From assembly GCA_963710415.1 (NCBI GenBank), contig CAVQAH010000021.1, positions 105,167-169,166 on the forward strand: a DNA stretch of 64,000 nt, read 5' to 3'. Both the position numbers and the translations under genes were made by a program. A model generated the notes under the pieces. It was not told the origin of the DNA. It made no database searches and saw only the letters and a program-made list of their open reading frames with translations. How positions within the stretch are numbered: position 1 is the stretch's first letter; each line of letters opens with the position of its first letter. Shown piece after piece: positions 1 through 19,761 of this stretch. Source of the stretch: an uncultured Acidobacteriota bacterium. GTDB lineage: Bacteria > Acidobacteriota > Vicinamibacteria > Vicinamibacterales > 2-12-FULL-66-21.

Positions 1-729
1 GGTCTCGGCGCCGGGCGGATGGAAAACCCTCGAGCCGAGGTGAAACAGGTTGCGCTCCGTTGCGCCGGCTCGTTGAATGACGACGTTGCCGCGTGCGTTG
101 ACCGTCACGGCGAGCCGGTCGGTGGGACCACCCCCGAATGAATAGTCACCGAGGATGGCCTTGCGATCGTCATCGGTCAGGCTCTCGTTCGTGTATCGAG
201 GCTCGGCGTCGCCGACAGTCTCGAGATACTTGACGACCTCTGCGGCGCCACCAAACTTGGCGTGATCCAGCAGCGGAATTCCGTGCGGTCCCCTCGTCCG
301 CTGAATCCCGGGTGATGCGGCGATCATGGCCTGCACGACGGTCAGCTGACCGAGCATCGCCGCCGAAAAAATCGTCGGCGGCGCTCCTGCTTTGAGCAGG
401 ACATCGGCGATCTCACGGTTTCCGACGTGGGACGCCGCCCCGAGGGCGGTCTCCCAGTCGCCATAGCCCCAATCCCAGGATGCCTTCGCCAGCGCGGGGC
501 ATCCCGACAGGAGTTCTCGCACCCGCGCAACGTTTCCGTGCGAAACGCCAACGGTCTCTCGCGCCAGCGCAGGATCGTGCGACGGAAACGACTCCGGGAT
601 GGGCCGCGGACGATCGGGCGCGGGCGCCTGAACATCAGCGACGTTGTTGACGATGGGGCCCGCCTGGCTTGCGGCGAAGACACTCCCGATCGGAACGATC
701 GCAAGGAAGGAACGACGTGAAAGCGACAT
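1..729 (-). CDS. Tat-signal ankyrin-repeat-like exported protein (3' end runs off the window)
   Basis: Not in the ORF track because there is no stop in the window. Manual translation from ATG 729 gives MSLSRRSFLAIVPIG... (twin-Arg motif), then SWDWGYGDWETALGAASHVGNREIADVLLKAGA and GPHGIPLLDHAKFGG (ankyrin-like). AGGAGG RBS lies 8 nt upstream; the frame is open to position 1. Confidence 0.75.
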   Translation of the reverse strand, partial: MSLSRRSFLAIVPIGSVFAASQAGPIVNNVADVQAPAPDRPRPIPESFPSHDPALARETVGVSHGNVARVRELLSGCPALAKASWDWGYGDWETALGAASHVGNREIADVLLKAGAPPTIFSAAMLGQLTVVQAMIAASPGIQRTRGPHGIPLLDHAKFGGAAEVVKYLETVGDAEPRYTNESLTDDDRKAILGDYSFGGGPTDRLAVTVNARGNVVIQRAGATERNLFHLGSRVFHPPGAET

Positions 730-858
730 GGCGCTCGACCTCCTGACGCCGACTCTGTGCGCGGCAAAGGCCAGCGCAAGCCAGGATCAGGCCAGGCTGA
801 TGTAAGTTACGAAGTCGAGGAGAGCCAGCGGGTTACAGAAGCAGGTGAGGCGAGCGTG

Positions 859-1735
859 TCAGTTGGCGGCGAGCTTGGCGGCAACCGCTGACGCGATGGA
901 TTCGGCAATCTCTGCCTGCACGGCGAGCGTGAACTCTGGCCGATCGTAGGTCTGCGCCCACACGTGGGCCTCATCCTTGACGCGAATCAGGTGAGCGATC
1001 AGCCGGACACGCGATTCATCGCGTTTGACCTGGGCGAGAACGACGTACTCCGCCCGGACGTCCCGGCCGATTTCCTGCAGGTCGCGAAACGACCGCGGCC
1101 GGCGAAGGGCGGCCGAGTTGCCAATGACGTCAAGACGTTCCACTCGTCCCGGAGCGGCGAGCCGGGCAACAGTCGCATCCGCAATTCCACGCGCGAGCCC
1201 ATCGAAGCTGTCCTGCCCCGTCTCGTTGTCGAACGGGACGACGGCGACGCGATGGATGGGGGCGTGCCGGGCCGCGACCGCATACCACCCGGCCGCCAGC
1301 CCGCCCGCCAGCAGCAACGTCGCAACCGCGAACCACTTCCGCGCCCTCTTTCCTGGGGGCGTCATCGCGGGAACCGGGTCGAGCACGTCCTCCACAGCCG
1401 CGACCTGCGGTTCCGTGCGGACTGGAGCAATGAACCGGTAGCCGCGGCGTGGCAGCGTCTCGACGAAGCGCGGGGATTCCGCCGAATCCCCGAGTGCGGC
1501 GCGGATTTGCGCCACGCAGAAGTTGAGCCCGCGCTCGAAGTCGACGAAAGTCCCGTCCGTCCAGACCTGCTGCCTGATCTCGTCTCGGGATACGACTGAA
1601 CCCGGCCGCTCGGCCAGGATGGCGAGAACGCGGGCCGGCTGTGGCTGAAGCTTGACGGGAACACCATCCCGCCACAGCTCACCGGTTACCGGGATCGAAC
1701 TCGAACACGCCGAACCGGAGCGGCGTGGTAGTCAC
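859..1735 (-). CDS. CadC/ToxR-like membrane-anchored transcriptional regulator (OmpR-type wHTH + TM + TolB-N-like domain); 1 frameshift near 1690
   Basis: GTG 1735 reads TTTPLRFGVFEFDP, then GELWRDGVPVKLQPQPARVL...FVDFERGLNFCVAQIRAALGDSAESPRFVETLPRRGYRF. It has a TM segment WFAVATLLLAGGLAAGWYAV and a VAVVPFDN domain. Confidence 0.85.
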
Positions 1736-1812
1736 GATGAGTAGACGATACCGCGAAACACAGGACCGTGCATCCGCCCGTGCCCTTGAGCACGTCCGCA
1801 CGTCGCAGATTG

Positions 1813-1970
1813 GATCCGCGCCCATCGCGCGTCCCGGACGATGGCACCGTCTCGTCCTAAGATCCGCGCATCCGCGTCCCGTGAACCGTGACGGAAATCC
1901 GCGTCGTCGGAGATGCCGCGACTCCAATCCACCCTCCGCCCCCCACCGTAGAACCCTCTGGAGATCCGCG
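1813..1970. repeat. Cluster of (G)ATCCGCG motifs, including a near copy of the terminal repeat of the element at 45472-45682
   Basis: (G)ATCCGCG occurs at 1813, 1861, 1870, 1897 and 1963. 1861-1885 GATCCGCGCATCCGCGTCCCGTGAA resembles GATCCGCGTGCAATTCGCGTCCCGTGAA starting at 45657. Confidence 0.55.
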
Positions 1971-2025
1971 ATATCCATCGACGGTTGCTAAAAAGGCCCG
2001 AAACTTGTAGAAACCAGGGGGTTCC

Positions 2026-3084
2026 GTGAAAAAGCTGCTCCTGATCCTCACCTTGCTCGCATTCGCGGTGCCGGTTGCGGCCCACCCGGCCCCCTTCAGC
2101 TACGTCGACGTACGCATCAATTCTGGAGAGTTGGCCGGCAAGCTCGTCATCCACGCCATCGACGCCGCCTACGAGCTGAAGCTCGCGGCGCCAGAGGAAC
2201 TGCACGACGACGCCGTAGTGACCGTCATGCTGCGGGCGCTCGAGAGAGTCCTGGCGGCCCGGCTGGAGTTTCTGGCTGACGGCAATGCACTGCCGTGGTC
2301 GATGACTGGCGCCCGGGCTCTGCCTGGTCTCGATGCCGTCGAGCTGACATGGCGGGCTCCGACGACGAGGGTGCCCGGCCGGCTGACGATCGTCGCACGC
2401 CTTTTTCCCTACGATCCGAACCACCAGACCTTCGTCAACGTGTACGAACGTGACGCCCTGGCCAGGCAGGAAGTGTTGAACCGCGATCGGTCGCGCGTGG
2501 ATTTCTTTACGGGCACCCGTCAGGGCAAATTCGCGGTGCTGACCAGCTTCGTGCAGTCGGGAATCCATCACATCGCAATCGGACCCGATCACATCCTGTT
2601 CATCGTCGGTCTCCTGCTCCTGGGTGGCTCGATTTCACGACTCCTCGCCATCGTCACCGCCTTCACGCTTGGGCACAGCGTCACGCTCGCGCTTGCGACC
2701 CTGAACATCCTTCAGCCGCCGGCCTCAATCGTCGAGCCAGCTATTGCCTTGAGTATCGTGTATGTCGGCGCAGATAATCTGCTCATCGGCACCCGCGGCC
2801 GCGATGTGCGGCCGTGGATCGCGCTGGCGTTCGGGCTCGTGCATGGTTTCGGCTTCGCGAGCGTGCTGCGCGAAACCGGGTTGCCCGACGGCGCGCTAGG
2901 CCTGTCGCTCTTCGCGTTCAACGTCGGCGTGGAGATTGGTCAGGCGGCAATCGTCATCGTGGTAGCATCTGCGCTGGCGTTCATTCGCAAGAAGAACGCG
3001 ATCGCTGCGCATCGGCTGGCGACCGCCGGCTCGGTGATCGTGATGCTCGCCGGCGCGTTCTGGTTCTTCGAGAGAGTGTATTGA
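2026..3084 (+). CDS. HupE/UreJ family protein (signal peptide, soluble N-domain, multi-TM C-domain)
   Basis: Signal peptide ending AAH; motifs GIHHIAIGPDHILF, TAFTLGHSVTL, VEPAIALSI, FGLVHGFGFA, FNVGVEIGQ. Confidence 0.88.
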   Translation: MKKLLLILTLLAFAVPVAAHPAPFSYVDVRINSGELAGKLVIHAIDAAYELKLAAPEELHDDAVVTVMLRALERVLAARLEFLADGNALPWSMTGARALPGLDAVELTWRAPTTRVPGRLTIVARLFPYDPNHQTFVNVYERDALARQEVLNRDRSRVDFFTGTRQGKFAVLTSFVQSGIHHIAIGPDHILFIVGLLLLGGSISRLLAIVTAFTLGHSVTLALATLNILQPPASIVEPAIALSIVYVGADNLLIGTRGRDVRPWIALAFGLVHGFGFASVLRETGLPDGALGLSLFAFNVGVEIGQAAIVIVVASALAFIRKKNAIAAHRLATAGSVIVMLAGAFWFFERVY

Positions 3085-3132
3085 TGACGAATCCCTTGAT
3101 GACGAATCCCTTGATGACGAATTCCTTGATGA
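3081..3132. repeat. 15-bp tandem repeat TTGATGACGAATCCC x3.5 at the stop/start junction
   Basis: Units at 3081-3095, 3096-3110, 3111-3125 (one mismatch) and a partial at 3126-3132; translates MTNPL-MTNPL-MTNSL-MM. Confidence 0.9.
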
Positions 3133-3995
3133 TGCAGCGACTGGTGCTACTTGGCGTGCTCGTGGCCGTGGGAGCGGTGGGAATTGCCGCGCGTCAGCAA
3201 GACAACACGGTCTGCACTGAAAAGGTTCGCGACAACCTGTTCATGATTCGCGGCGGCGGCGGAAACACGGCGGTATTCGTCACGACCAAGGGTGTCGTCC
3301 TCGTCGACACCAAGAATCCCGGCATGGGCCCGGCCATCATGGACCAGGTGCGCTCGGTGACCGACAAGCCGGTGACCACCATCATCAACACGCACACGCA
3401 TGCGGATCACAACGGCAGCAACGAACACTTCCCGACGGCTGTGGAGATCGTCACCCAGGAGAATACGAAGGCGAACATGGAGAAGATGACCGCCTTCCAG
3501 GGCGAGAAGGCGCAGTTCCTGCCGGATCGCACGTTCGCCGATCGCCTCACGCTGAACCAGGGACCTGACCGCGTGGATCTCTACTACTTCGGTCCGGGCC
3601 ACACGAACGGCGATGCCATCGTGGTGTTTCCAGCGCTCAGCGTCGCTCACACCGGCGATCTCTTCGCCAGGGCGGGCACGCCGCTCATCGACATCAAGAA
3701 CGGTGGGAGCGGAATCCGCTATCCAGAAACGGTCAAAAAGGCAGCAGCCGGAATCAAGGACGTCGAAACCGTGATCCCCGGCCACAGCGACGTGACGACC
3801 TGGACCGCCTTCGCCGAGTTCGGCGAGTTCAATCAGGCGTTCCTCGACGCCGTGCGCGCGGCGGCGCAGGCAGGAAAGACGGCGGACGAAGCGGAAGCCT
3901 CACTCAACCTGCCGGAGAAGTTCAAGGCTTACAACATGAGCCGCGTCAAGGAGAACGTCACGGCGATCTACGAGGAGCTCAAGACCGTCAAGTAG
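3084..3995 (+). CDS. Exported MBL-fold metallo-hydrolase (cyclase/glyoxalase-like)
   Basis: Motifs INTHTHADHNGSN, GPGHTNGD, HTGDLF and VIPGH, with a hydrophobic signal peptide. The start is ambiguous (3084 to 3132) because of the tandem repeat. Confidence 0.85.
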   Translation: MTNPLMTNPLMTNSLMMQRLVLLGVLVAVGAVGIAARQQDNTVCTEKVRDNLFMIRGGGGNTAVFVTTKGVVLVDTKNPGMGPAIMDQVRSVTDKPVTTIINTHTHADHNGSNEHFPTAVEIVTQENTKANMEKMTAFQGEKAQFLPDRTFADRLTLNQGPDRVDLYYFGPGHTNGDAIVVFPALSVAHTGDLFARAGTPLIDIKNGGSGIRYPETVKKAAAGIKDVETVIPGHSDVTTWTAFAEFGEFNQAFLDAVRAAAQAGKTADEAEASLNLPEKFKAYNMSRVKENVTAIYEELKTVK

Positions 3996-4035
3996 GCCGT
4001 GAACCTCTCGTCGTGAACCCTCGTCTGAACCCCCG

Positions 4036-5512
4036 TCAAGTGACCTTCGGCTGCGATGGATCGACTCGCTCGATCCACGCCAGGACTCCGCCTGTCAGGT
4101 TCTTCGCCTCGACGCCGTGCTCCTTGAGCAGCTTGACCGCCTTGGCGCTGCGCCCGCCCATCTTGCAGTGCACGACGATCTCGCGGTCATCGTCGGGAAG
4201 TTCGGCGAGCCGGCTGCTCAGCTGTCCAAGCGGGATGAGCGTCGCGTTCGGGATTCGGCAGATCTGATACTCGTGCGGTTCGCGGACGTCGAGCACGAAC
4301 GTGGGTTGACCGGCATCGAGCCGGGCCTTCAACTCCTCCACCGTTGTCTCGAGCTCTGGCGGCAAAGCGTTGCCGGCCGCTGCAGCACTGGGTTGAGGCG
4401 TGACGCCACAGAACTGGTCGTAGTCGATCAGCTCGCGAACGGTCGGACGGTCACCGCAGACCGGGCAGTCCGGATCGCGCCGTACCTTGAGCTCCCGGAA
4501 TCGCATCGCCCACGCGTCGTACAGCAACAATCGTCCGATCAGCGTGCCGGAGGCGCCGAGGATCAGCTTGATGGTCTCGGTCGCCTGAATGGTGCCGATC
4601 ACGCCGGGCAACACTCCCAGCACGCCGCCTTCGGCGCAGCTCGGGACCAGACCTGGCGGAGGCGGCTCGGGAAACAGGCAGCGATAGCATGGGCCGCCGC
4701 GGGTTGCGAAGACCGAGGCCTGCCCTTCGAACCGAAAGATGCTGCCATAGGCGTTCGGCTTGCCGAGGATCACGCACGCATCGTTCACGAGATACCGCGT
4801 GGCGAAGTTGTCCGTCCCGTCGAGGATGACGTCGTACTGCTTGAACAGCGCCATCGCGTTTGACGACGAGAGCTTCATCTCGTGGGTTTCGATATGCACT
4901 TCAGGATTCAGCGCGGACAGGCGGGCGCGCGCCGACTCGAGCTTCGGCCGGCCGATGTCAGGCGTGCCGTGAATGATCTGGCGCTGAAGATTGCTGGCGT
5001 CCACCGCGTCGAAGTCGACCAGGCCCAGCGTGCCGACGCCGGCCGCCGCGAGGTACAACGCCGCCGGCGATCCGAGGCCGCCGGCCCCTACGCACAGGAC
5101 GCGAGCGCCCTTCAGCCGCCGCTGACCATCGATGCCGACTTCCGGCAGGATCAGGTGACGGCTGTAGCGTTCGACTTCCGCGTTGGTCAGTTCCGGCGTG
5201 GTGGAGGCCTCGGAAGGCGATGTGTCCGACGCCGCTGACCCGCCAGCCACTGACGGCACGATGCTGATGGTGTCCCCTGCCTTCAGCGCCGTGGCCTCGC
5301 GATCGAGATAGCGGATGTCGTCGTCGTTCACGTAGACGTTCACGAAATGCCGCAACTTCCCGTCGTCGGCGTACAGGTGGCGCCGGAGATCGGTATAGCG
5401 GTTCGTCAATGTCGACAGGACTTCGCCGACCGTGCCGCCGTCGACCTCGACGGCGTCCTGCTGACCGGTATACGGTCGAAGCGGTGTCGGGAATCAGGAC
5501 CCGGTGTGCCAT
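4036..5512 (-). CDS. moeZ: Fusion of a MoaD/CysO-type ubiquitin-like sulfur carrier + ThiF/MoeB E1 adenylyltransferase + rhodanese (MoeZ-like); 1 frameshift near 5490
   Basis: ATG 5512 reads MAHRVLIP/TPLRPYTGQQDAVEVDGGTVGEVL...RHFVNVYVNDDDIRYL...ISIVPSVAGG (beta-grasp, GG at 5239-5244). It continues in frame to RYSRHLILPEVG, GAGGLG, SNLQRQ, CYRC, PSCAEGG, CPVC and the rhodanese loop HCKMGGRS. Confidence 0.9.
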
Positions 5513-5527
5513 CGCAACTCTCCCTCT

Positions 5528-5570
5528 GGGGTCAGGTCTTGAATTCCAGCGTTTTTCACGACCTGACCCC
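5528..5570. repeat. REP-like inverted repeat GGGGTCAGGTCTTGAA...TTCACGACCTGACCCC
   Basis: 16-bp arms at 5528-5543 and 5555-5570 with one mismatch; the right arm supplies the last codons and stop of the JAMM gene. Confidence 0.8.
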
Positions 5571-5975
5571 CAAAACCCCTTCATCGAATCCCGAACGATT
5601 ATCCCGCAGCCACCAGGCGGTGACGTCGCCGGGCACGCCGTTGGTTACCGAGATGATCACATAGATGAAATTGGGCCACGCGTGCTCGAGATCGTACGCC
5701 GACGGCCGGGCGGGCTCGTTCGGGTGCGAATGGTAGAAGCCCAGCAGGTCCGCACCGAGCGCACTCGCGCGCGCTTCAGCGCCGCGATACCCGTCCGGCC
5801 CGATCCGGAACCGTCGCGCGGCACCGCTGGCGGTCGTATTCTCCATGGCAAACGCTTCGAGGATGACACCGCCGCGGCCGATCAGCGCACCACAACACTC
5901 GTGGGGAAACGTCGCCGCACCGTGACGGCGAATCGCCTCGATCGCGTCGGTGGCAATCGTCAGCCGACCGGTCAC
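5556..5975 (-). CDS. mec: JAMM/MPN+ (M67, Mov34) metallopeptidase, Mec-like
   Basis: PHECCGAL followed by FYHSHPNEPARPSAYD matches the E...HxHx7SxxD JAMM motif; it lies between cysM and the Ubl-E1 gene. Confidence 0.9.
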   Translation of the reverse strand: MTGRLTIATDAIEAIRRHGAATFPHECCGALIGRGGVILEAFAMENTTASGAARRFRIGPDGYRGAEARASALGADLLGFYHSHPNEPARPSAYDLEHAWPNFIYVIISVTNGVPGDVTAWWLRDNRSGFDEGVLGVRS

Positions 5976-5977
5976 CC

Positions 5978-6025
5978 GTGGCGTCCGGCTTCAGCCGGAC
6001 CTCCGTGTCCTCCTTCAGCCGGACC
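5978..6025. repeat. Two GTAG-type REP copies (GTRGYGTCCGGCTTYAGCCGGACC family)
   Basis: 5978-6001 GTGGCGTCCGGCTTCAGCCGGACC and a degenerate copy at 6005-6025; same family as 10207, 10243, 24217, 24248 and 55287. Confidence 0.85.
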
Positions 6026-6039
6026 CCTCTGATCATCAT

Positions 6040-6954
6040 TCACCAGAAACTCTCCGTGAGGTAGCGCGTTCCCGTGTCTGGAAAAACCGTGACAATCACC
6101 CCGTTGTCGATGCGGCTGGCCAGGTCCAACGCCGCCGCCATCGCCGCCCCGCTCGACACGCCGACGAGGAGCCCTTCCTCCTGCGCCAGCTGTCTCGTCG
6201 CGGCATAGGCCCGCTCCGTGGTGATCCGCACGTCCTCGTCGGCAAGCGCCGGATCGTAGATGCCCGGGCGTATCGCCGTTTCCATGTGCTTCAACCCCTC
6301 CATACCATGGAGCGGCGAATCCGGCTGCACGGAGACCAGGTGGATGCCGGCGCGATGCGCGCGCAGCCGTCGGCCAACTCCGACGAACGTGCCGCTCGTG
6401 CCGAGCCCGGCGACGAAGTGCGTCACGCGACCGCCGGTTTGCTCGAGAATCTCGCGTCCGGTGGTCTCGAAGTGCGCCCGCCAGTTTGCGTCATTGTTGT
6501 ATTGATCGGCATAGAAATATCGATCGGGTTCCGCCTCGTGGAGACGCCTCGCCTCGCGAATGGCCCCATCGCTGCCCTCCATGGCACTGGTCAGCTCGAT
6601 CTCCGCCCCGTACGCGCGAAGGATGCGCAGGCGTTCGGGCGTGACGCTTTCCGGCACGCACAGCTTCAATTTATAGCCGCGTGAAGCCGCGAGCATGGCA
6701 TAGGCGATCCCTGTGTTTCCCGATGTCGCGTCAAGGATTGTCTTGCCGGCACGCAGCAGACCACGTCGCTCGCCCTCGTCGAGAATCGCCAGCGCGGCGC
6801 GATCCTTGACCGATCCACCCGGGTTCAAGAATTCGGCTTTCGCATACAACTCGACGCCCGGCTTCGCGAGCGCCTGGTGGCGCAGTCGCAGCAACGGCGT
6901 GCGGCCGATCGTCGAGCGTAACGTGCTGGTCGATTCGAGTGTCGAGCTGGCCAT
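6040..6954 (-). CDS. cysM: PLP-dependent cysteine synthase, CysM-like
   Basis: Motifs IGRTPL, KAEFLNPGGSVKDR (PLP lysine), ATSGNTGI, GLGTSGT, EGLLVGVSSG and FPDTGTRYL. Confidence 0.92.
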   Translation of the reverse strand: MASSTLESTSTLRSTIGRTPLLRLRHQALAKPGVELYAKAEFLNPGGSVKDRAALAILDEGERRGLLRAGKTILDATSGNTGIAYAMLAASRGYKLKLCVPESVTPERLRILRAYGAEIELTSAMEGSDGAIREARRLHEAEPDRYFYADQYNNDANWRAHFETTGREILEQTGGRVTHFVAGLGTSGTFVGVGRRLRAHRAGIHLVSVQPDSPLHGMEGLKHMETAIRPGIYDPALADEDVRITTERAYAATRQLAQEEGLLVGVSSGAAMAAALDLASRIDNGVIVTVFPDTGTRYLTESFW

Positions 6955-6960
6955 ATCGTG

Positions 6961-8812
6961 TCACGCGCTGCATTCACCTTCCTGGACCGCGGGTCTGAAC
7001 GCCGCCTCCTCGCCGAGATCGACGAAGTCCTCGGCAGTTGCCTCGCTCTGGGGACAGCCGGTCGAGTCCGCGAAGGGCATTCTTCACGATCGAGAGATCG
7101 ACGCGGCGAAAGAACGCGAGCGCCGATTCGTCTCGCGCGTGACTCTCGTGGTAGAGAGCGACCAACCGATCGATCGCCTCTCGACACCGGCGTGCTGGAA
7201 CCGTCGCCGCATGACGCCCGAACGTGGTAATGCCCTCTGCCGTGCCGCCGCCTACCATGACGAAGTAATGTGGCGCGGGACGCCCGCCTACCTTGCGCAG
7301 ACTGCCCTGAAAGCCAATCCCCGCGATGTGGTGCTGCCCGCAACCGTTCGGACATCCGCTGATCTTGATGTTCAGTCCGGGCACGCGGGCCACCAGGTCC
7401 TCACGGCCTTCCAGGTACTCGGCCAGCACCAGCCCCAACCCGCGTGATTGGGTAACCGCCAGCCGGCAGGACTCCGCGCCCGGGCAACTGGTGACATCCG
7501 CCAGCGTCCCCGCACCGGCTCGGCCCAGTCCCGCCGCACGCAGGCTTCGAAAGAAAGCCGGCAGGTGCTCGTCCGGCACCCATCGGAACAACAGGTCCTG
7601 ATCGATCGTGATCCGCACGGAGCCATCACCGAACGCCAGGGAAAGCTCGCCGAGCAGACGCATCTGCGCAGACGTCAGGTCACCCAGCAGCGTCGACACT
7701 GTGACCACGCTCCAGCCACGCTGGCTCTGCGGGCGGACGTTGGTCTGCGACCATCGGGCAAACTCGTTCCCCTCATTCGTAAGACGCGGCTCGACCCTGG
7801 GCAGGATTCCTGGTCCGCGCAACGGTGTGGTCGCTACGCGTGCAGCGATGGCGAACGGGGCTGGCGGCGTCGAGGCCCGCAACCGGGGGCGGCATCTCGA
7901 CGGGTGGGCTGTCCGGGTCGAACGGCAGCGACGGAACCTCCAGCCGCGCGGGCCCTTTCAAACTCCTGCTCGAACTCGCGACGAAAGCCGTCCCACCCGA
8001 GAGACTTGATCAAGAACTTCAGGCGATTTCGCTGCTTGTGCTGATAGTCGCCAAGCCGGTGGAACACACGCAGAGTTGCCTCGGCGACGTTCAGAATCTC
8101 CGAGGCCGGCAGGAATTCGAAGAGCTCGAGACCAGCCCGGCAGACGGTCGAGGTGCCGCCGGCTACCGTGACCCTGAATCCCTTGATGGACTTCCCGTCG
8201 ACGACGCCGTGCCGCGCGGTCCAGCCGATGTCGTTGATGCCGGTGGCGACGTGATCGACCGGGCACCCCTCGAACGCGATCTTGAACTTGCGCGGCAGGC
8301 TCGAGCTCAGCGGGTGCCGCAGCAGGTAGCGCGTCAACGCTTCCGCATAAGGGGTCACATCGAACGCCTCATTCGCCGCAACACCCGAATACGGGCAGGC
8401 GGTGATATTGCGCACCGAACTGCCGCATGCTTCCCGCGTCGTCAGCCCGGCCTCCCCCAGGTCGGCGCATGGCGAGCTCGATTTCGTGCAGCTTCACGAA
8501 ATGAAACTGCATGTTCTGCCGCGTGGTGATGTGACCAAAACCGCGCGAGTACGTGTCCGCCACGTCGGCAAGCGCGTCCAACTGCGGGGGCGTCAGCAGA
8601 CCCTGAGGGATCTTCACGCGCAGCATCTGCGCATCTTCGGCCTGCCGCTGACCGTAGGTCCCGCGAACCAGCCGAAACGCGCGCCACTCGTCGGGTCCGA
8701 CCTCGCCACGCTCGAATCGTCCCAGCATGGTCACGAATTCGTCGATATCAGCCTCGTCAGCAAACGACACTCGCGCTCGACCGAGCGTGTTCCGATCGTC
8801 CATTGCTGCCAT
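6961..8812 (-). CDS. Siroheme/[4Fe-4S] sulfite (nitrite/sulfite) reductase, ferredoxin-type; about 3 frameshifts
   Basis: Joined ORFs 8369-8812, 7834-8415 and 6974-7882 give GTYGQRQ, MLRVKIPQG, HITTRQNMQFH, RNITACP, LPRKFKIAF, RNRLKFLI, TSCPGAESCRLA and KISGCPNGCGQHH. The protein ends VQEGECSA* at 6961. Context favours sulfite as substrate. Confidence 0.88.
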
Positions 8813-9594
8813 GATTGCTCCTGTTCACGCCGCCATGTTCATCCCACATCAACATCGCCCTGAGCCGGACGACATTCCCGATCACGACCGTTCCCGCACG
8901 TCGATCGCCGTCATCCGATTCCTCAGACCGCTCGTGTTGCAGCGCTTCGAGCGTCAACGTCTTCGTCTGCGCTGACGGCGTGGAAGCGCCGAGCAGAACC
9001 GCTGCAGGCGTCAGCCTGTTCCACCCGCGCGCGATCAGCAGGCACGCCACGTCCGCGATCTGCGCCAGGCCCATCATCACGACGACCGTGACGCTATTGG
9101 GCGACAGCGGTTCAAGAACCGGCCGGTACGCGTCCTCCGAGTGACCGGACACCACGACGAACCCTGACGCGAGTCCTCGATGCGTGACCGGGATGCCGGA
9201 CAACCCCGCCGCAGCCACTGCCGACGTGATGCCAGGCACGACCTCGAACGGAATGCCCGCGTGAGCGAGGGCCAAGCGCCTCTTCCCCGCCCCTTCCGAA
9301 GACGAACGGATCGCCGCCCTTCAGCCGAACGACGCGCCTGCCTTGTTGCGCCGCACGAATCATCAGGCGGTTGATCGACGCCTGCGTCACGGCAGGACGC
9401 CCTGCCCGTTTGCCGACGAAGACCCGCCGCGCCGCCCGGGCCAGGTCGAGGACCCGACGATCGACCAGCGCGTCGTAGAACACCACGTCCGCCTCGGCGA
9501 GACACCGCGCCCCTCGAATGGTCAGCAGATCTCCGGATCGCCCGGACCAGCGCCGACAAGGGCGACGAATCCACCACGCCCAAGGTTCAGTCAT
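8757..9594 (-). CDS. cobA: Uroporphyrinogen-III C-methyltransferase (SUMT); several frameshifts
   Basis: Motifs [42 protein letters not shown] and VVPGITSA...IPVTHRG. Confidence 0.88.
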
Positions 9595-9602
9595 CGATCC
9601 AT

Positions 9603-10182
9603 TCACTGGACAGATCCGGGTGAGCGCTGCTCTATAGCATGCCTCACGAGCGCCTCGAGGAGCAACGGCCTGCGGTCGGCCATTGGCACGGCCTCGGCCA
9701 GCCACTGCTGCCGAGTTGTCCGTGCACACTGCATCCATCGCTCGAGATCGTCTGGAAGAACCGCCTCGAGCGCCTCGCGAATGAGCCCGGCGAGCGCCGG
9801 CGCGGCGCCGTCTGTAGAGATCGATATCGTGACGCCCGCGCGTCGCAGCACGGCGCCCGCGAATACGCTCGCGTTCTCGACGTCATCGACCGCATTCACG
9901 AGCAGGCCGCGTGCATGCGCCGCGGCGGCGACCTTGTGATTCACAGCCCGTGGCGCAGCCGCGACCACGAAACACACGCCGTCCAGATCGGATTCGTCGA
10001 ACGGCCGCTGACGCACGTCCACGCCTTGCGAGCGGATCTCCGCGGTGACGTCGGGGGCCACAACCGTAACCAGCGCACCAGTTTCGACGCAGGCTGCGGA
10101 GCTTCTGTGTTGCCACCGCTCCGCCCCCGACGAGCAAGACGCGACGGTCCTGCAGGCGAAGAAAGACGGGTAGAACCGGCAA
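9603..10182 (-). CDS. Precorrin-2 dehydrogenase/sirohydrochlorin ferrochelatase (CysG N-terminal half, Met8/SirC-like); frameshift near 10089
   Basis: TTG 10182 follows a GGGGAGG RBS; motifs [31 protein letters not shown] and [13 protein letters not shown]. Confidence 0.85.
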
Positions 10183-10206
10183 CTGACCTCCCCGATGACG
10201 TCTATA

Positions 10207-10266
10207 GGTCCGGCTAAAGCCGGACACTACGGGGGCTACAACGGTCCGGCTAAAGCCGGACACCAC
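10207..10266. repeat. Tandem pair of GTAG-type REPs
   Basis: GGTCCGGCTAAAGCCGGACACTAC at 10207-10230 and GGTCCGGCTAAAGCCGGACACCAC at 10243-10266. Confidence 0.92.
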
Positions 10267-10267
10267 G

Positions 10268-10308
10268 AAAACAAAAAAGCCCGGGGGCCGAATGGCCACC
10301 GGGCTTTT
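10268..10308 (-). terminator. Intrinsic terminator in the 5' leader of the cys operon (attenuator)
   Basis: Minus strand reads AAAA-GCCCGG-T-GGCC-ATTC-GGCC-C-CCGGGC-TTTTTTGTTTT, a GC stem plus U-tract located between the promoter and the first gene. Confidence 0.85.
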
Positions 10309-10360
10309 GGTCTCTCGAATCCAACCGATGCCGATCTATGGTGTCAGCATCGCTTCACTT

Positions 10361-10441
10361 TCACATTGGCAAGACCTCGGCCGCGCGGCCACCCGGGAAT
10401 CCCGGGCAACAACATACGCATGCGACAACGAGGTACTGCAC
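10361..10441 (-). CDS. Cys-rich leader peptide MQYLVVACVCCCPGFPGGRAAEVLPM (26 aa), probably leaderless
   Basis: GTG CAG TAC CTC GTT GTC GCA TGC GTA TGT TGT TGC CCG ... ATG TGA: 4 Cys in 5 codons. It starts 6 nt after a -10 box, has no SD sequence, and is followed by a terminator and the cysteine biosynthesis genes. Confidence 0.72.
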   Translation of the reverse strand: MQYLVVACVCCCPGFPGGRAAEVLPM

Positions 10442-10477
10442 GACCGAAGACTACCGGCTCGCGCAGTCCGCTGTCAA
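10441..10477 (-). promoter_or_regulatory. Sigma70-type promoter for the cys operon leader
   Basis: Minus strand TTGACA (10477-10472), 18 nt spacer, TAGTCT (10453-10448), 6 nt, then the G of GTG at 10441. Confidence 0.75.
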
Positions 10478-10561
10478 GGCACGCATCGCCGCGTGCGCTG
10501 GAGCAACGTCGTGCGCTACTCTGACATCGATCGACTTCGTAGCGGGAGGACCTTCGTCGAC

Positions 10562-11474
10562 TTGCAGAACCTGAACATCGTCGTGCCGGGCTCGATCAGC
10601 AATCTTGGGCCTGGATTCGACACATTGGCCGTAGCCGTCGAGCTGTTCCTGCGGATCCGCGTACTCGAAGTGCGCTCGGACGCACCGGATACGCTCGAGA
10701 CGGTATTTCCGGCTGGTCCGCCATCGGGAGGCAACCGCATCGAGGTCGCGTGGAAACTCGCTCGCGAGAGGTTTGGAAAGCCAGCACCGGGTTTGCGCAT
10801 CGAGGTCACCAGCGAGATCCCGGTGACAGCAGGACTGGGCAGCAGTGCCGCCGCAGCGGTAGCCGGCCTGCAGCTGTATGCCGCTGTGACCGAGGCACGC
10901 AGCGTTGGCGATCTGCTGTCGATGGCCAGCGAGCTCGAAGGACACCCGGACAATGCGGCGGCAGCCCTGCTTGGCGGCATGACGGTGAGCTGTCTGCGAG
11001 ACGATGGACGGTTGATTGCGCGATCGTGGCTGCCGCCGAGAGGACCTGCGATTCGTCGTGGCGACACCGGTTGCGACGCTCGAAACCTCCCGCAGCCGGC
11101 GCGCGCTGCCCGAACAGGTCTCGCTGGCCGATGCGGTGTTCAACCTGCAGCGCGCGGTCCTGCTCGTCAAATCGCTCGATTCGGGCCAGTTCGACGATCT
11201 CCGCGAAGCGCTTCGCGACCGGCTGCACCAGCCCGCGCGGGCACCGCTCGTGCCTGCCCTGGCCGAGGCGCTGGCGATTGACCATCCAGCCGTGCTGGGG
11301 GTGTGCCTGAGCGGCGCCGGATCGTCCGTGGTCGCCTTCGCAACGGCCGAGCGGGCAGCCGAAGCGGCCGCGATGTTGGGCGAGGTGTATCGCCGGCTCG
11401 GCATCCAACATACGATAAGAACGCTGCGTGCGCATGAGCCCGCGGCCGCAACGACTCTGCATCACAGCATATGA
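10562..11474 (+). CDS. thrB: Homoserine kinase; frameshift near 11035
   Basis: TTG 10562 follows GGGAGGA; motifs VPGSISNLGPGFD, IPVTAGLGSSAA (GHMP), LEGHPDN, DRLHQPAR and LSGAGSS. Confidence 0.9.
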
Positions 11475-12715
11475 ACTTCAGCCTCCGCTGCCATCTTTGC
11501 CACGCCACGTTCGCCCCCGCGGCGTTCTGGGTTTGCGATCAATGCCTGGGCCCGCTGGAAGTCGCCTGGGACTACGCGGCCGTCGCGAAGGTCATCAGCC
11601 GCGACGCAATCGAGTCACGCCCGAGAAACCTCTGGCGATACCGGGAACTGCTCCCGATTGAGGGAGAGCCGCAAACCGGCCTCCACTCCGGGTTCACGCC
11701 GCTCGTTCGAGCCGATCGGCTGGCGGCGCGGCTCGGCGTGCGTGAGCTGCTACGTCAAGGACGACTCCGTCAATCACCCGACCTGTTCGTACAAGGATCG
11801 CGTCGTCTCGATCGCCGCGACCCGTGCCGTCGAACTCGGGTTTCGCGTGCTGGCCTGTGCGTCGACCGGCAACTTGGCTGGCAGCGTGGCCGCGCATGCG
11901 GCGCGCCTCGGGCTCTCGTGCTTCGTGTTCATCCCCGATGATCTCGAGGCCGCCAAGATCGCCGGCGCCGGCGTGTACCGACCCCGTATCATGGCCGTGC
12001 ATGGCAACTATGACGACGTCAACCGGCTGTGCACGCAGGTCGCGGACCGCCACGGCTGGGGATTCGCGAACATCAATCTGCGCGCCTACTACGCCGAAGG
12101 TGCGCAAGACGTGCGCATTCGAGATCGCCGAACAGCTCGGGTGGCGGTTCCCGCAGCACGTCGTTTCGCCCGTCGCCGGCGGGACACTGTTGCCGCGCAT
12201 CCTGAAGGGATTCGAGGAACTGAAGACCGTCGGACTCGTCGAGGGAACTGTCCCCGCGATCCATGCTGCGCAGGCGGCCGGCTGCGCGCCGGTCGTGAAA
12301 GCGTTGGAGAGCGGCGCGGAATTCCCCGAACCCGGTGAAGCCGAACACGATCGCGAAGTCGATCGCCATCGGCAACCCCGCAGACGGCTTCCAGGTCGTG
12401 CGCTCGGTTCGGTCGACGGGCGGCTCCGGCGCCATGGTCTCCGACGACGAGATCATCGAGGGCATCAAACTGCTCGCGGAAACAGAGGGTATCTTTACAG
12501 AACCGGCGGGCGGCACCACAGTCGCGGCCACACGGCAGCTGATCGAGCGTGGCGCGATCCCGCACCATGAATCGATCGTCATCTGCGTCACAGGCAATGG
12601 ATACAAGACGACCGAGGCACTGAGCGGCCGGCTCGACGATCCGATTCGTATCGGTCGATCGCTCGCGGATTTCGAGGCAAGCCAGGCTGCGCCCGCGCTG
12701 ACGGCAGGTTCCTAG
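11471..12715 (+). CDS. Threonine-synthase-fold PLP enzyme, paralogue 1 (possible O-phosphohomoserine sulfhydrylase); about 3 frameshifts
   Basis: N-terminal zinc ribbon CHLC...CDQC; motifs [69 protein letters not shown] and TGNGYKT. ATGA overlap with thrB. Confidence 0.85.
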
Positions 12716-12725
12716 CGAAATCGTC

Positions 12726-14043
<1,318 letters not shown>

Positions 14044-14058
<15 letters not shown>

Positions 14059-14076
14059 AGCTACGGCGCGGCAGGC
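14044..14076. repeat. REP-like element of the CCGCCTYCGC...GCTWCGGCG type overlapping the thrC stop
   Basis: GCCCGCCTCCGCTAAAGCTACGGCGCGGCAGGC; related to 60993-61025. Confidence 0.6.
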
Positions 14077-14104
14077 CTTCCCGCTAAATCACGCGCGGCA
14101 AGCC

Positions 14105-15725
14105 ATGGACGCGCGCGATATCATAGGCCGCGTGAAAAAGAGCGTCGCCGCCGCCTCCATCCTGACAGTGTTCTGGTCCTTCGGTGGTGGCGCGCAGCAG
14201 GGGCCCGCGCCGTTCCAGATCGAGGAAACCACCATCGTCTCGATTCATGCCGCCCTGACGTCCGGGCAGCTGACGTGCCGGGGTCTGGTCGAACAATACC
14301 TTCGCCGAATCGAGGCGTACGACAAGAACGGCCCGGCCCTCAACGCCATCGTTCAGATCAACCCTGATGCTTTGAAGGAGGCCGAGGACCTGGATCGGCG
14401 CTTCAAAGCGAGCGGCCGCGTCGGCCCGCTCCACTGCATTCCCGCCATCGTCAAGGACAACTTCGAGACGATTGGCCTCCAAAGCGCTGCAGGGTCGCTG
14501 GCGTTGAAGGGATTCGTGTCACAGAAGGATGCCTTCCAGGTCAAGAAGATCCGGGAGGCTGGCGCGATCGTCCTCGCCAAATCCAACATGGCGGAGTGGG
14601 CGTTCACGCCGTACGAGACGGTCAGCTCGATTCTGCCGGGATACACGAAGAACCCGTACGCGCTCGATCGCGTGACCGCCGGATCGAGCGGAGGAACGGC
14701 GGCGGCTGTGGCGGCAAACATGGGTGCGATTGGCCTGGGAAGCGACACCGGCAATTCCATCCGCGGCCCGTCGTCACATCAGGCGCTGGTGGGAATCCGT
14801 TCGACGATGGGGTTGACGAGCCGCGGCGGGGTCGTTCCGCTCAGCGTGCTTGCGGATATCGCCGGTCCAATGACGCGTACGGTCACCGATGCAGTGGCCG
14901 TGTTTCAGGTGATCGTCGGATCCGGACCCTGACGATCCGTTCACCGTTCCTGGCTCGGCGGAGGCGCGCGCGTTCAGTCCGGGAAATCGTCCACGCCACC
15001 GTCACCAAGTACGCGGACGCGCTCGTTCGTGATGGTCTCAAAGGCGCCAGGATTGGCGTGCTCCGGCAGGCGTACGAGCGAGACACCACGGATCCGGAGA
15101 TCGTTCAGGTCTTCATGGCTGCCGTGGACGATTTGAAGCGTGCGGGAGCGGTGATTGTGGATCCCGCGCGGGTCGACCTCGAACAGGTCCGGCGCGCACA
15201 GGACATCGGACCGTGTGCCGGGTTCAAGCACGACATCAACCGCTATCTGGCCGGCCATGGCGATCGCATTCCGATGCACAGCCTCGAGGAGGTCGATCCG
15301 CTCGCGCCAGTTTCATCCGTCCGTCCAGCGGCGCCTCGAGCAGTCGCAGGAAGGTCAGGTCAACGGTCTCGATTCGCCGGCGTGCGCGGCGGAGGCGGAG
15401 TACCGGGAGAAGGTGCGCGTGGCGGTGCTGAAAACGATGAACGAGCAGAAGCTGGACGCGCTTCGTCTATCCGACCTGGAGCAACCCTCCCCGGCTGATC
15501 GGAGACCTGAACACGCCGCACGGGGACAACAGCCAGTTCTTCTCGCCGACGACCGGCTTTCCGTCGATCAACGTCCCGATGGGATACACGCGTGGCGTCC
15601 TGCCTGCGGGAATGACGTTCTTCGGGCGCGCGTGGGACGAGTCAACGCTGATCAAGCTGGCCTACTCGTACGAACAGTGGACGAGCCACCGTCGCCCGCC
15701 GCCGTCGACACCTCCGCTGCGCTGA
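14105..15725 (+). CDS. Amidase signature family protein (exported); about 3 frameshifts
   Basis: Motifs [26 protein letters not shown] and [13 protein letters not shown]-terminal [11 protein letters not shown]...[18 protein letters not shown]. Confidence 0.88.
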
Positions 15726-17414
15726 CACGTAGCTCTCAGCATGTCGGCTGGTACCTGCTTTCTTCTCGACCCGCGCGAATCGGATATCCCACACGCGGTC
15801 CTGGCTGATGCTCAGGCCTGTGACCTGACCCTGTGCGCTGCGTTGAAAGCGCACGAATCCGATGCCGCCGGTGAATCCATCAGCATACGCGGGTGTCAGC
15901 CGAATGGTCGTGTCAGGCCGACGCTTCAGCACGAGCGCGTCGTTCTCCACAGCGGCCGTGAACGTGACCTCCGCTTCGGTGCTGACATATTCACCGGCGT
16001 AGTCGGACAACGGCTTCGGCTTGCGGTCGGCAGCCGCGAGCCGCTCGTACGGCTCGACGCTTCCGTAACCATCGATCAGCTTCAGCCGGGCGCCGTCGAT
16101 CTCGACGCGGCGGCCATTCGAGGCGGTGAAGCGCGAGCCCGATTCAGCCTGCAGCGCTGCGCCCCCCTGAAGACGCACGGCGTTGCCGTCGCGGACGAGT
16201 TCGAGCGGTTCGCCCGTTTCGGTATTGCGATACAGACCGACCACCGCGTCGATCTCCTCGTTCTTCAAAGCGTAACGGTCCGCCGGCGCGCGCGATGCAG
16301 CCGCACTCGTGCCCGTCGTGATGGCCGAGCCCAGATAGAGGTCCGCGACCGCGTGCGCGTATTGCGTGGCCGCGCCGCTGCTGACGTTGCAGAGCACGCC
16401 GACCGAGACCTTCTGGTCCGGATAGTCCACGAGGTGCGCCCGATAGCCGGCCGTCGAGCCGCTGTGGCCGACCTCCCGTACGCCCTTGTAGGGTCCGATC
16501 ATCAGCCCGAGCGCATAGCCGTGGGCGCGGCCGTCGTTGAAGCGCCCGGGCTCCTGCTGTTCGTTCACGAATGCGGCATCGCCCACCACCGGCCTGGCGA
16601 AATTCGCCGTCCACCTGAGCAGATCGCCGACCGTCGTCAGCAAGCCCGCCGTTGCCGTGCACGTTCTCGAACGGCATGTTCATGCGGAAGACTGCCACCT
16701 GCGTCCGAGTACGCGATCGCGCGTCCCTTGACGACGCGGGTGAAGTCGTCGCGCCAGGACGTGCGCGTCATGCTCAGCGGCTCGAAGATGCGCGTGCGGC
16801 TGAACTCGGCAAACGACTCCCCGCTCACTCGCGACACGATGATCGCCGCAAGGTTGTAGCCGCTGTTGCTGTACGAGTAGCGCGTGCCCGGACGGGAAAT
16901 TGAGCGCGCGCTGCCGGCTGAGGATGTCGAGCACGTGCGCGTGGGTGTAGACACGCGTGGTTCGCGGCCAGCCGCCGATCCCAGCCACGCTGCCCCAGTC
17001 GCGCAGCCCGCTCGAGTGGTTCAGCATGTGCCGGATGGTGAGCGGCGCGCCGTAGTCGGGCAGCTCCGGCATGTACTTCCGCACCGGATCGTCCAGCGAC
17101 AGCTTGCCGTCCTTGACGAGCAGGAGCACCGCCGCAGCCGTGAACTGCTTCGAGACGGAGCCTGCCTCGAAGATCGTGTCGGCGCGGTTCGCCGTGTCGT
17201 GCTCGAGATCGGCCATGCCGTAGCCCTTCTCCAGCACGCTCTTGCCGTCCACGCTGACGCCAACCGCGCATCCCGGCGTCGTCTGGTTCCACCGCGCGAA
17301 GACCTGGTCGACTTTCGGCTCGAGCGACGCGCTCTGCCGCGGTGCCGCCGTCGCCGTCATGATGCCAGCCGCCGCGATAGCCGCCGCAAGAGTCCACAGC
17401 CGTCGATTCTTCAT
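15642..17414 (-). CDS. Serine hydrolase, beta-lactamase class C/D-aminopeptidase-like (exported); about 3 frameshifts; 3' end uncertain
   Basis: Motifs [10 protein letters not shown] (SxxK), [15 protein letters not shown] (YxN) and GHSGSTAGY; signal peptide. Confidence 0.85.
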
Positions 17415-17486
17415 ACGTCAGTCCTGGATCTTGTTACCCCGGGGCTTGATTCGACACGCCTCGACCTGAATGTGCCCATTGCCCAT

Positions 17487-19718: not shown

Positions 19719-19761
19719 GGCGGCGTAGAGATTACAGGACGCGGCCTCACCCGGCAACGGG

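Follow-up and report, generated by a model that had tools for sequence, protein, structure and literature searches.

In the window (the whole 64,000-nucleotide stretch of soil-bacterium DNA that was analysed), a minus-strand gene lying 3' of cysM and of an intact JAMM gene encodes a CysO-like sulfur carrier and a MoeB-rhodanese enzyme in one polypeptide. Since an E1-like enzyme of this family adenylates a free C-terminal glycine, the question is how a carrier that is translated in fusion with its own E1 can be activated. We propose that, with good probability, the adjacent JAMM protease cuts after the Gly-Gly that precedes a variable linker, freeing the carrier for activation and for sulfur delivery to a CysM-like enzyme.

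Layout of the locus

The features are as follows.

4036..4344, minus strand: C-terminal rhodanese domain with active loop CKMGGRS, plus the stop (PF00581)
4459..5166, minus strand: ThiF/MoeB (E1-like) adenylation domain of the MoeBR type, with both CxxC motifs (PF00899, E 7.5e-84)
5170..5238, minus strand: Ser/Ala/Thr/Pro linker, 23 residues up to RYSRH, hypervariable, without start codon (sequence, alignment)
5239..5244, minus strand: Gly-Gly, with the predicted scissile bond right after it (codons at 5244-5239, conservation)
5239..5512, minus strand: CysO-like ubiquitin-fold sulfur carrier, 91 aa, C-terminal PSVAGG (frame analysis, same-genus orthologue, structure relatives)
5488..5490, minus strand: one extra base put into a short run of C by the assembly, an artefact that splits ATG 5512 from the remaining frame (relatives' contigs, orthologue)
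5556..5975, minus strand: Mec-like JAMM/MPN+ metalloprotease, 139 aa, with intact E...HSH-x7-S-x2-D motif (Prok-JAB, E 1.9e-22)
6040..6954, minus strand: CysM-like PLP cysteine synthase, 304 aa, EGLKHM subtype (PALP; TIGR01138 at 345.7 bits, which is below its cut-off; aligned with actinobacterial CysM)
6964..8812, minus strand: sulfite/nitrite-reductase-family gene (sir), 5' of cysM, in four pieces here and intact in a same-genus genome (profile matches)
8757..10299, minus strand: siroheme synthase (cysG) pieces, frameshifted (TP_methylase, NAD_binding_7, Sirohm_synth_M)
10550..11474, plus strand: homoserine kinase gene thrB, oriented divergently to the sir operon, frameshifted, with an approximate start (TIGR00191, GHMP)
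11471..12715, plus strand: MetM-like threonine-synthase paralogue, in four pieces here and intact in relatives (orthologue comparison)

In the ORF 4036-5409 the ThiS, ThiF and rhodanese domains all score above the Pfam cut-off. The nearest solved relatives of the carrier, whose same-genus orthologue has a mass of about 9.9-10.0 kDa, are 4N6E_B of the ThiS/MoaD family (E 9e-27) and the CysO 3DWG_C (E 2e-25), with other ubiquitin-like proteins far behind in the profile search. The E1 domain matches the folds of Uba4, MoeB and ThiF; its C270/C273 and C344/C347 are invariant across 44 aligned rows, as is the catalytic C442 of the rhodanese domain in the alignment. The JAMM has 2KCQ and PfJAMM1 (5LDA) as PDB relatives, and its metal motif is intact in 75 of the 78 matches. 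The sir-family gene is the likely sulfide source. No Rfam match was found in positions 1-20000 of the window, and RNA runs contained only 5-7% of its sequence words.

Reading frame through the junction

The first-pass annotation had described a carrier ending in PSVAGG that runs stop-free into MoeB-rhodanese through a linker lacking in-frame ATG, GTG and TTG, next to a JAMM gene and cysM. These points are borne out: the Gly-Gly at 5244-5239 is followed by TCA, the frame is open to the E1 motif RYSRH, the linker holds a single CTG at 5190, and the Prok-JAB and CysM/CysK-family genes lie adjacent. What had been overlooked is the one-base insertion near 5489. The true start of the carrier is ATG 5512, which is preceded by GGAGAG and is in a frame other than that of the rest of the ORF. 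The extra base is an assembly error, because it is absent from close relatives' contigs (4/4 runs from four studies, and 4/4 runs in a second comparison) and because a same-genus genome has an uninterrupted frame from MAHRVLIP. The window is rich in such errors, with sir and the thrC-like gene in four pieces each.

It had also been advised that the junction be checked, TCA being one substitution from a stop. The contigs from three studies (X5, X6 and X7), which come from close relatives rather than from raw reads of this strain, span 5236-5244 with no difference there, and 31 of 41 related genomes, this strain's own counted, have a stop-free match over the full length. TCA stands at this place in no other correctly parsed locus of the set compared, which answers the concern.

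The junction across Acidobacteriota

The fusion layout is real and common in Acidobacteriota: 85 of 126 distinct loci are fused and 41 are split, and ThiS and ThiF lie in one protein in 120/120 among the homologues listed. It is noted that the genomes surveyed are kin rather than independent, and that some tails could be assembly errors. The Gly-Gly is present in all 126 loci by selection, the motif being the search pattern; it is also invariant in the 29/29 fused loci aligned and in 80/80 loci found with a looser pattern. In the 29 fused loci PSVAGG has zero entropy, while from the next residue on the entropy is 1.9-3.3 bits. The linker ranges from 16 to 43 residues without conserved sequence, and residues 87-98 of the AlphaFold model of an orthologue have pLDDT below 50, which is consistent with a disordered junction in the model.

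Split carriers are not free at the Gly-Gly either, as 40 of the 41 carry 1-24 residues past it, and the translated end lies exactly at the Gly-Gly in only 1 of the 126 loci. A free C-terminal Gly-Gly is thus absent as translated, and processing is required. Internal translation starts were considered and rejected as a general solution, with an ATG in 3 of 85 linkers and an SD-like motif plus start codon in 6 of 85.

On the tree at least 11 fused/split state changes are found, seven of them forced by well-supported branches, with the fused state dominating whole subtrees. Of 80 loci, 76 have a JAMM within 6 kb and 61 a CysM, and a JAMM with intact motif was found in 51 of the 53 fused genomes examined. 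Two fused genomes (G119 and G138, fragmented into about 400 and 620 contigs) gave only RadC-like matches, with no Mec-like JAMM and no operon-type CysM found in them, and their MoaD/ThiS end at the Gly-Gly; in two others (G186 and G189) the only JAMM is a distant one, at about 40%. The co-occurrence of JAMM with the locus is also explained by cysteine release alone.

The JAMM as a probable trimmer of carriers

The tails are not confined to this carrier. Of 38 MoaD or ThiS in genomes with a Mec-like JAMM, 19 are extended past the Gly-Gly, versus 0 of 15 in genomes without it; in the operon-bearing genomes the extended forms are 9 of 20 for MoaD and 10 of 18 for ThiS, and in the nine control genomes without a Mec-like JAMM all 15 ThiS/MoaD end exactly at the Gly-Gly. 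From these tails, those on the split carriers and the swaps of state, we consider it probable that in these genomes the JAMM trims ubiquitin-fold carriers in general. Loss of a stop codon would then be cheap and the fusion would come and go, so that the fusion is likely the longest tolerated tail for the JAMM rather than a dedicated 1:1 device.

Proposed pathway

Based on the above, the pathway would proceed as follows. The carrier, E1 and rhodanese are translated as one chain, as is visible in the sequence. The JAMM would then likely cut after the Gly-Gly, as conservation and precedent suggest. The E1 would adenylate the free glycine and the rhodanese persulfide would convert it into a thiocarboxylate, which is established chemistry of the family. 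The CysM-like enzyme, the likely acceptor, would condense the carrier thiocarboxylate with a serine ester, most likely O-phosphoserine. Finally, the same JAMM would release cysteine, by analogy with Mec.

The precursor cut by the JAMM, advanced in the first-pass annotation, stands as the best reading: it would account for a fixed Gly-Gly followed by varying residues, for tails on 40/41 split carriers and for restarts in only 6/85 linkers, and it has precedent in MoaD-MoaE and SAMP1-MoaE. That a 1:1 stoichiometry is the selected purpose of the fusion looks unlikely, because the two states swap so often.

Predicted acceptors of the carried sulfur

A substrate-loop Arg and a C-terminal tail are features of the O-phosphoserine-using, carrier-dependent actinobacterial CysM. 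The enzyme here is 40% identical to an actinobacterial (Tsukamurella) CysM, lacks the tail and has Lys222 aligned with that Arg; Lys is found at this position in 61/61 orthologues, and the basic residue is thus kept. Its sequence resembles E. coli CysM more closely than mycobacterial CysM. It belongs to the CysM/CysK family and is not a straightforward orthologue of actinobacterial CysM. Its use of O-phosphoserine and carrier thiocarboxylate is predicted, with indirect support from the scarcity of cysE, which was found above the cut-off in 0 of 54 genomes and at E 1e-30 or better in 11 of 54. A link of this subtype with the Alistipes enzyme SulA proved wrong, SulA being an unrelated acyltransferase. 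Judged by gene content, transsulfuration may supplement the carrier route in the genome of the window, because two Cys/Met-metabolism PLP genes and a cystathionine-beta-synthase-like gene are present.

The freed carrier, which likely feeds CysM, perhaps feeds the MetM-like enzyme (11471-12715) too. Intact orthologues of the latter are 47-48% identical to a Nonomuraea thrC-like gene preceding a CysO-like carrier, a reference that is not an authentic MetM, versus 27-36% to other thrC-like proteins. No dedicated free carrier was found within 1.5 kb of the thrC-like gene in 30 loci, and in five of these the fused carrier gene lies directly downstream. It is conceivable, and we put it forward tentatively, that a single protease-gated precursor is the source of the only E1 in Vicinamibacterales cells and of a shared carrier for making cysteine (CysM-like) and homocysteine (MetM-like) from phospho-amino acids, with the same JAMM as genome-wide maturase also licensing MoaD and ThiS.

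Alternative explanations

Processing may occur as proposed while the fusion itself is selected, either by fixing a 1:1 supply or by letting a tethered pseudo-substrate inhibit the cell's only E1 until the JAMM acts. This reading can stand together with our explanation, from which it departs only as to the reason for the fusion. That fused loci are the majority and that no full MoeB-type E1 other than the fused enzyme was found in the genome of the window would suit it; the repeated state changes, the linker's free length and sequence, and the drift past the Gly-Gly in unrelated carriers of the same genomes make it rather unlikely.

It is improbable that some other protease, be it a further JAMM or a housekeeping peptidase, frees the carrier and that the adjacent JAMM only strips cysteine from the carrier-Cys adduct. 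Two further JAMM-like genes lie on contig C23 of the genome, and four fused genomes are without an operon-type JAMM. Against this, the adjacent JAMM must recognise carrier-Gly-Gly-X anyway for cysteine release, it stays beside the carrier even in loci without a nearby operon-type CysM, and Mec is given as the MetO maturase of mycobacterial-type systems in the available part of GapMind S1D.

There is only a slim chance that the ubiquitin-fold domain stays attached in a structural or regulatory role, like the N-terminal fusions of ThiF in the accessible text of PMC1779556, with CysM using free sulfide from the adjacent sulfite reductase. The position of sir directly upstream, the best PDB matches of CysM (O-acetylserine sulfhydrylases B) and the fusion in G119 and G138, where no JAMM was found, would fit such a role; the invariant Gly-Gly followed by free drift, the separate gene for the same domain in 41/126 loci and the CysO-type nearest solved relatives speak against it, as does the finding of no other CysO-like carrier in the genome of the window (78% complete).

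Finally, that misassembly produced the fusion or that an internal start yields a separate E1, as a frameshift-rich window with TCA right after the Gly-Gly might suggest, has a negligible probability given the junction in three studies' contigs, the 31/41 relatives, the 120/120 listed homologues and the rarity of internal starts; the artefact is rejected.

Significance

If the proposal is true, a bacterial ubiquitin-fold protein naturally arises in fusion with its own E1 and must be released, which gives a simple parallel to ubiquitin precursor processing. If the tentative extension is also true, one small protease controls sulfur transfer to cysteine, methionine, molybdopterin and thiamine, like deubiquitinases freeing ubiquitin from fusion precursors. 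Tails found only where the JAMM is, together with repeated fusion and fission, make a clean candidate for maturase-enabled neutral drift. A sulfur amino acid route is also suggested for an abundant, mostly uncultured soil lineage largely without cysE and metX; pathway tools would miss it because the annotations read simply MoeB for the fused gene and threonine synthase for the MetM-like one.

Comparison with known systems

The M. tuberculosis CysO/CysM/Mec+/MoeZR pathway, as described in the available text of PMC3227635 and PMC12910592, likewise has a CysO-type carrier, an E1 with C-terminal rhodanese, a JAMM and a PLP cysteine synthase. Here, by contrast, the carrier is fused to the E1 or tailed past the Gly-Gly (bar 1/126), while the actinobacterial (Tsukamurella) CysO ends at it; moreover, the acidobacterial E1 is of the MoeBR type with both CxxC, the CysM is of another subtype, and the cluster also holds sir and cysG. 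In the accessible part of PMC3227635 the mycobacterial MoeBR type failed to activate CysO, which counts against our proposal. The Streptomyces MetM/MetO route to homocysteine (Hasebe et al. 2024, as outlined in parts of PMC13759103 and PMC12172450) shares a thrC-like paralogue beside thrB, with Mec and an E1-rhodanese available; here no dedicated free carrier lies near the synthase, which would share the fused one with the CysM-like enzyme.

The predicted operon type 4c (Iyer, Burroughs and Aravind 2006; PMC1779556) combines ThiS/MoaD, E1-rhodanese, JAB and cysteine synthase and is listed for an acidobacterium. The available text also proposes JAB release of fused ubiquitin-like proteins, and describes neither a carrier-E1-rhodanese fusion in that operon nor tails on split carriers. 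Our literature search found no experimental study of the carrier-E1-rhodanese architecture; Burroughs 2009 may describe the fusion.

HvJAMM1, which is needed for activity, cuts SAMP1-MoaE exactly after Gly (PMC4443979); DRJAMM cuts a natural MoaD-MoaE (PMC8832034); the tailed carriers QbsE/QbsD and CxnE/CxnF have been described or proposed (PMC5925218). As in SAMP1-MoaE, MoaD-MoaE, QbsE and CxnE, a JAMM is predicted here to expose the C-terminal Gly-Gly of a tailed or fused carrier, and as in the JAMM-matured MoaD-MoaE type the Gly-Gly is kept at the junction with an unconserved linker after it. The operon type and the JAMM cleavage of MoaD-MoaE fusions are thus already published, and the E1-fused layout is a variant of known sulfur biochemistry, differing from SAMP1-MoaE and MoaD-MoaE in having the activating E1 itself as fused partner and an amino acid as product.

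Locus, reading frame and assembly errors

Four genes are read from the minus strand in the following order:

6964-8812, minus strand: sulfite-reductase-family gene (sir), the first in the gene order
6040-6954, minus strand: cysM-like gene, between sir and the JAMM gene
5556-5975, minus strand: gene of the Mec-like metalloprotease (JAMM), between the cysM-like gene and the fused frame
ending at 4036, minus strand: single ThiS-ThiF-rhodanese reading frame, the last of the four

This gene order, together with the domain matches, bears out the first-pass annotation, which had placed a JAMM gene and cysM next to the carrier gene. As also claimed there, the carrier ends IVPSVAGG and runs on without a stop, with the GG codons at 5244-5239 and TCA coming next, and the linker between TCA and the E1 motif RYSRH has 0 stop codons and 0 ATG, GTG or TTG codons. 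What was overlooked is the true start of the carrier, ATG 5512, which a single extra base near 5488-5490 places in another frame. This extra base is missing from the contigs of close relatives in 4/4 runs from four studies and in 4/4 runs of a second set, and a same-genus genome encodes an intact fused protein of 483 aa. As to the junction, which had been held to need confirmation in reads and orthologues, contigs from three studies span GG with 0 differences, and stop-free full-length matches are present in 31 of 41 related genomes, the source genome counted. The fusion is real and conserved.

The assembly is noisy. Compared with the same-genus proteins, sir is broken into four pieces and so is the thrC-like gene, and many single-base frameshifts are present in sir, cysG, thrB, the thrC-like gene and an amidase gene within window positions 1-20000. 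These frameshifts are typical of an unpolished long-read assembly, and the broken genes are not to be read as pseudogenes. Elsewhere in the source genome, a JAMM/thiolase/surface-antigen-like block occurs twice on contig C23 (1-4100 and 10400-15100), inverted and near-identical, representing a duplication or a misassembly. At window positions 59366-63982 two Hsp70-like genes lie side by side, one with a DUF3731 domain.

Conservation of the fusion and of its junction

In the phylum-wide sample, stop-free full-length matches occur in 23/151 genomes and an E1-rhodanese match in 68/151, the latter tally alone taking in an unpublished genome (G062). With an N-terminal query of 125 residues against proteins of 265-846 aa, 7428 of the 7999 scored candidates matched; among the matches listed, ThiS and ThiF domains are present in 120/120 and PSVAGG in 119/120 (the remaining one being not parseable), and the two proteins with taxon names belong to Vicinamibacterales and Acidobacteria. 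The commonest taxon of the Atlas clusters with ThiS, ThiF and rhodanese domains is Acidobacteriota, Methanobacteriota or Pseudomonadota, with few labelled members.

Across 29 fused loci (L029, which was wrongly parsed, being excluded), the entropy is zero over PSVAGG and 1.9-3.3 bits at the eight positions after it, and conservation is back at the E1 domain. The linker is 16-43 residues long in the best 80 of 590 confirmed loci. Modelled with AlphaFold from a 44-row alignment, the intact orthologue has a mean pLDDT of 83.8 and consists of a folded carrier, residues 87-98 with pLDDT below 50, the E1 domain and the rhodanese; its best fold matches are Uba4, MoeB and ThiF, and the best solved relatives of the carrier profile are 4N6E_B and CysO 3DWG_C. 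Both E1 CxxC motifs and the rhodanese cysteine are kept in 44/44 alignment rows.

Split orthologues

Among the best 80 of 590 confirmed loci of the genome collection, a script classified 43 as fused and 34 as split, leaving 3 unclassified, with JAMM (76/80) and operon-type CysM (61/80) lying at most 6 kb from the carrier. The pooled and de-duplicated set, from which three further loci with truncated E1 are excluded, contains 126 distinct loci, 85 fused and 41 split. In 40/41 split carriers 1-24 residues follow GG, L138 being the only one GG-terminal, and the Aliarcobacter plasmid copy ends GG-Ile; since nearly all split carriers, this copy included, have residues after GG, the operon carrier would be a pro-protein whether fused or split. 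In a FastTree phylogeny built from the carrier and E1 sequences, leaving out the linker, there are at least 11 changes between fused and split states, 7 of them forced by starred branches, versus a mean of 34.6 with shuffled states, the tree giving the changes with no direction of fusion or fission.

A different paralogue, 36-39% identical, fills the upstream cysteine synthase position in one Vicinamibacterales clade (L083, L095, L096, L102, L105 and related loci); a rhodanese domain lies between it and JAMM, and the carriers are mostly split. The split cysM-JAMM-carrier(GG-Ile)-E1 cluster of Aliarcobacter cibarius (L219, plasmid NZ_CP043858.1) is interrupted by IS elements; next to it are cysE, cysK and a family 2A encapsulin that has a cysteine desulfurase as cargo.

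JAMM and the tails of other carriers

Of the fused genomes examined, 51/53 have a JAMM with intact motif, either beside the carrier gene or at another site and in many cases paired with cysM; in G186 and G189 the sole JAMM is a distant one (~40%). In the other two fused genomes, G119 and G138, RadC-like matches were the only ones; no Mec-like JAMM and no operon-type CysM was found, nor any sign of a trimmer in their MoaD and ThiS. These two genomes count against a strict JAMM requirement for the fusion, while a missing contig is possible because they are in ~400 and ~620 contigs. At L070, L071, L180 and L181, cysM and JAMM are neighbours at a site separate from the carrier gene; the open frames that cover the JAMM match are 480-740 aa long there, which suggests CysM-JAMM fusions in some genomes.

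As control, 20 genomes of the phylum with no E1-rhodanese match were taken, of which 4 with a strong JAMM were excluded and 7 had no ThiS-family match; in the remaining 9, 15/15 ThiS/MoaD proteins terminate exactly at GG. In 20 operon-bearing genomes, where 43 of 50 other ThiS-family matches were inspected, tails are present on 9/20 MoaD and 10/18 ThiS (19/38 together) and on 0/5 further Ubls, with at least one tailed carrier in 13/20 genomes; the genomes compared are kin, and therefore significance is not claimed. The MoaD and ThiS tails in JAMM genomes (L034, L241-L278) have 1-45 residues past GG. MoaD of the source genome (L034, G000:C11:146568-146798) ends GG-Ser, as does that of G001, and the frame of its ThiS continues beyond GG. 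The pattern fits a JAMM that would trim whatever follows GG on several carriers, and we infer that the fusion is less a dedicated device for stoichiometry than a tolerated side effect of such general trimming.

Candidate enzymes fed by the carrier

The nearest solved structure of the CysM-like protein is E. coli CysM, and the protein scores below every NCBIfam cysteine-synthase cut-off. It shares 40% identity with an actinobacterial CysM encoded in a clpS-mec-cysO-cysM cluster but has Lys222 at the Arg position of the latter and lacks its C-terminal tail. Lys222, at what we take to be a phosphate-binding position, is conserved in 61/61 orthologues. In the operon-bearing genomes cysE scores above cut-off in 0/54 and reaches E 1e-30 or better in 11/54, and none was found in the source genome (78% complete); this scarcity of cysE favours O-phosphoserine as the probable substrate.

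thrB, followed by two thrC-like genes, is oriented divergently from sir:

11471-12715, plus strand: MetM-like (first thrC-like) gene, after thrB and in tandem with the second
12754-14058: second thrC-like gene, itself perhaps the real threonine synthase and only 27-29% identical to the first

Intact MetM-like orthologues share 47-48% identity with a Nonomuraea thrC-like gene that has a CysO-like carrier directly 3', versus 27-36% with other thrC-like proteins. This Nonomuraea tandem agrees with the MetM/MetO route as given in GapMind 2026 (PMC13759103, Table 2, S1D) and PMC12172450, the latter also cautioning that a cyanobacterial MetM homologue is not fully MetM in behaviour. The MetM-like paralogue is present at 50% identity or more in 40/61 genomes, and metX-like matches in 13/61. 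A free carrier within 1.5 kb of the MetM-like gene was found in 0/30 loci, and the fused carrier gene is directly downstream in 5/30. It is plausible, with the chances about even, that the MetM-like enzyme shares the carrier of the fused gene.

Proposed pathway and comparison with known systems

The sequence itself shows the gene order, the fused frame, which domains are present and that the catalytic motifs are intact. In the CysO system as described in PMC3227635, the carrier can be adenylated only with its C-terminal Gly free, sulfur comes from the rhodanese, CysM makes the carrier-Cys adduct and Mec frees cysteine. The fused precursor is almost certainly processed, and the first cut, after GG, is probably made by the adjacent JAMM. 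The E1 would then adenylate the freed C-terminal Gly, with the rhodanese providing sulfur, the CysM-like enzyme would form the carrier-Cys adduct with O-phosphoserine as substrate, and the Mec-like JAMM would release cysteine.

In a literature search covering mainly article texts, no test of the carrier-E1-rhodanese fusion was found; Burroughs 2009 may describe the fusion. The most useful additions here are the correction of the assembly error, the finding that fusion and fission have recurred, and the tail control with its indication of a general maturase. Iyer et al. 2006 (PMC1779556) listed the four-gene operon, with an acidobacterial example included, in row 4c, and also proposed the freeing of fused Ubls by JAB. 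A Ubl-E1 fusion of a different kind is mentioned for Thaumarchaeota (PMC2948915), and PMC5925218 describes short-tail trimming of QbsE and proposes it for CxnE. For linear fusions, the JAMM cut after Gly has been demonstrated with SAMP1-MoaE (PMC4443979) and with MoaD-MoaE (PMC8832034).
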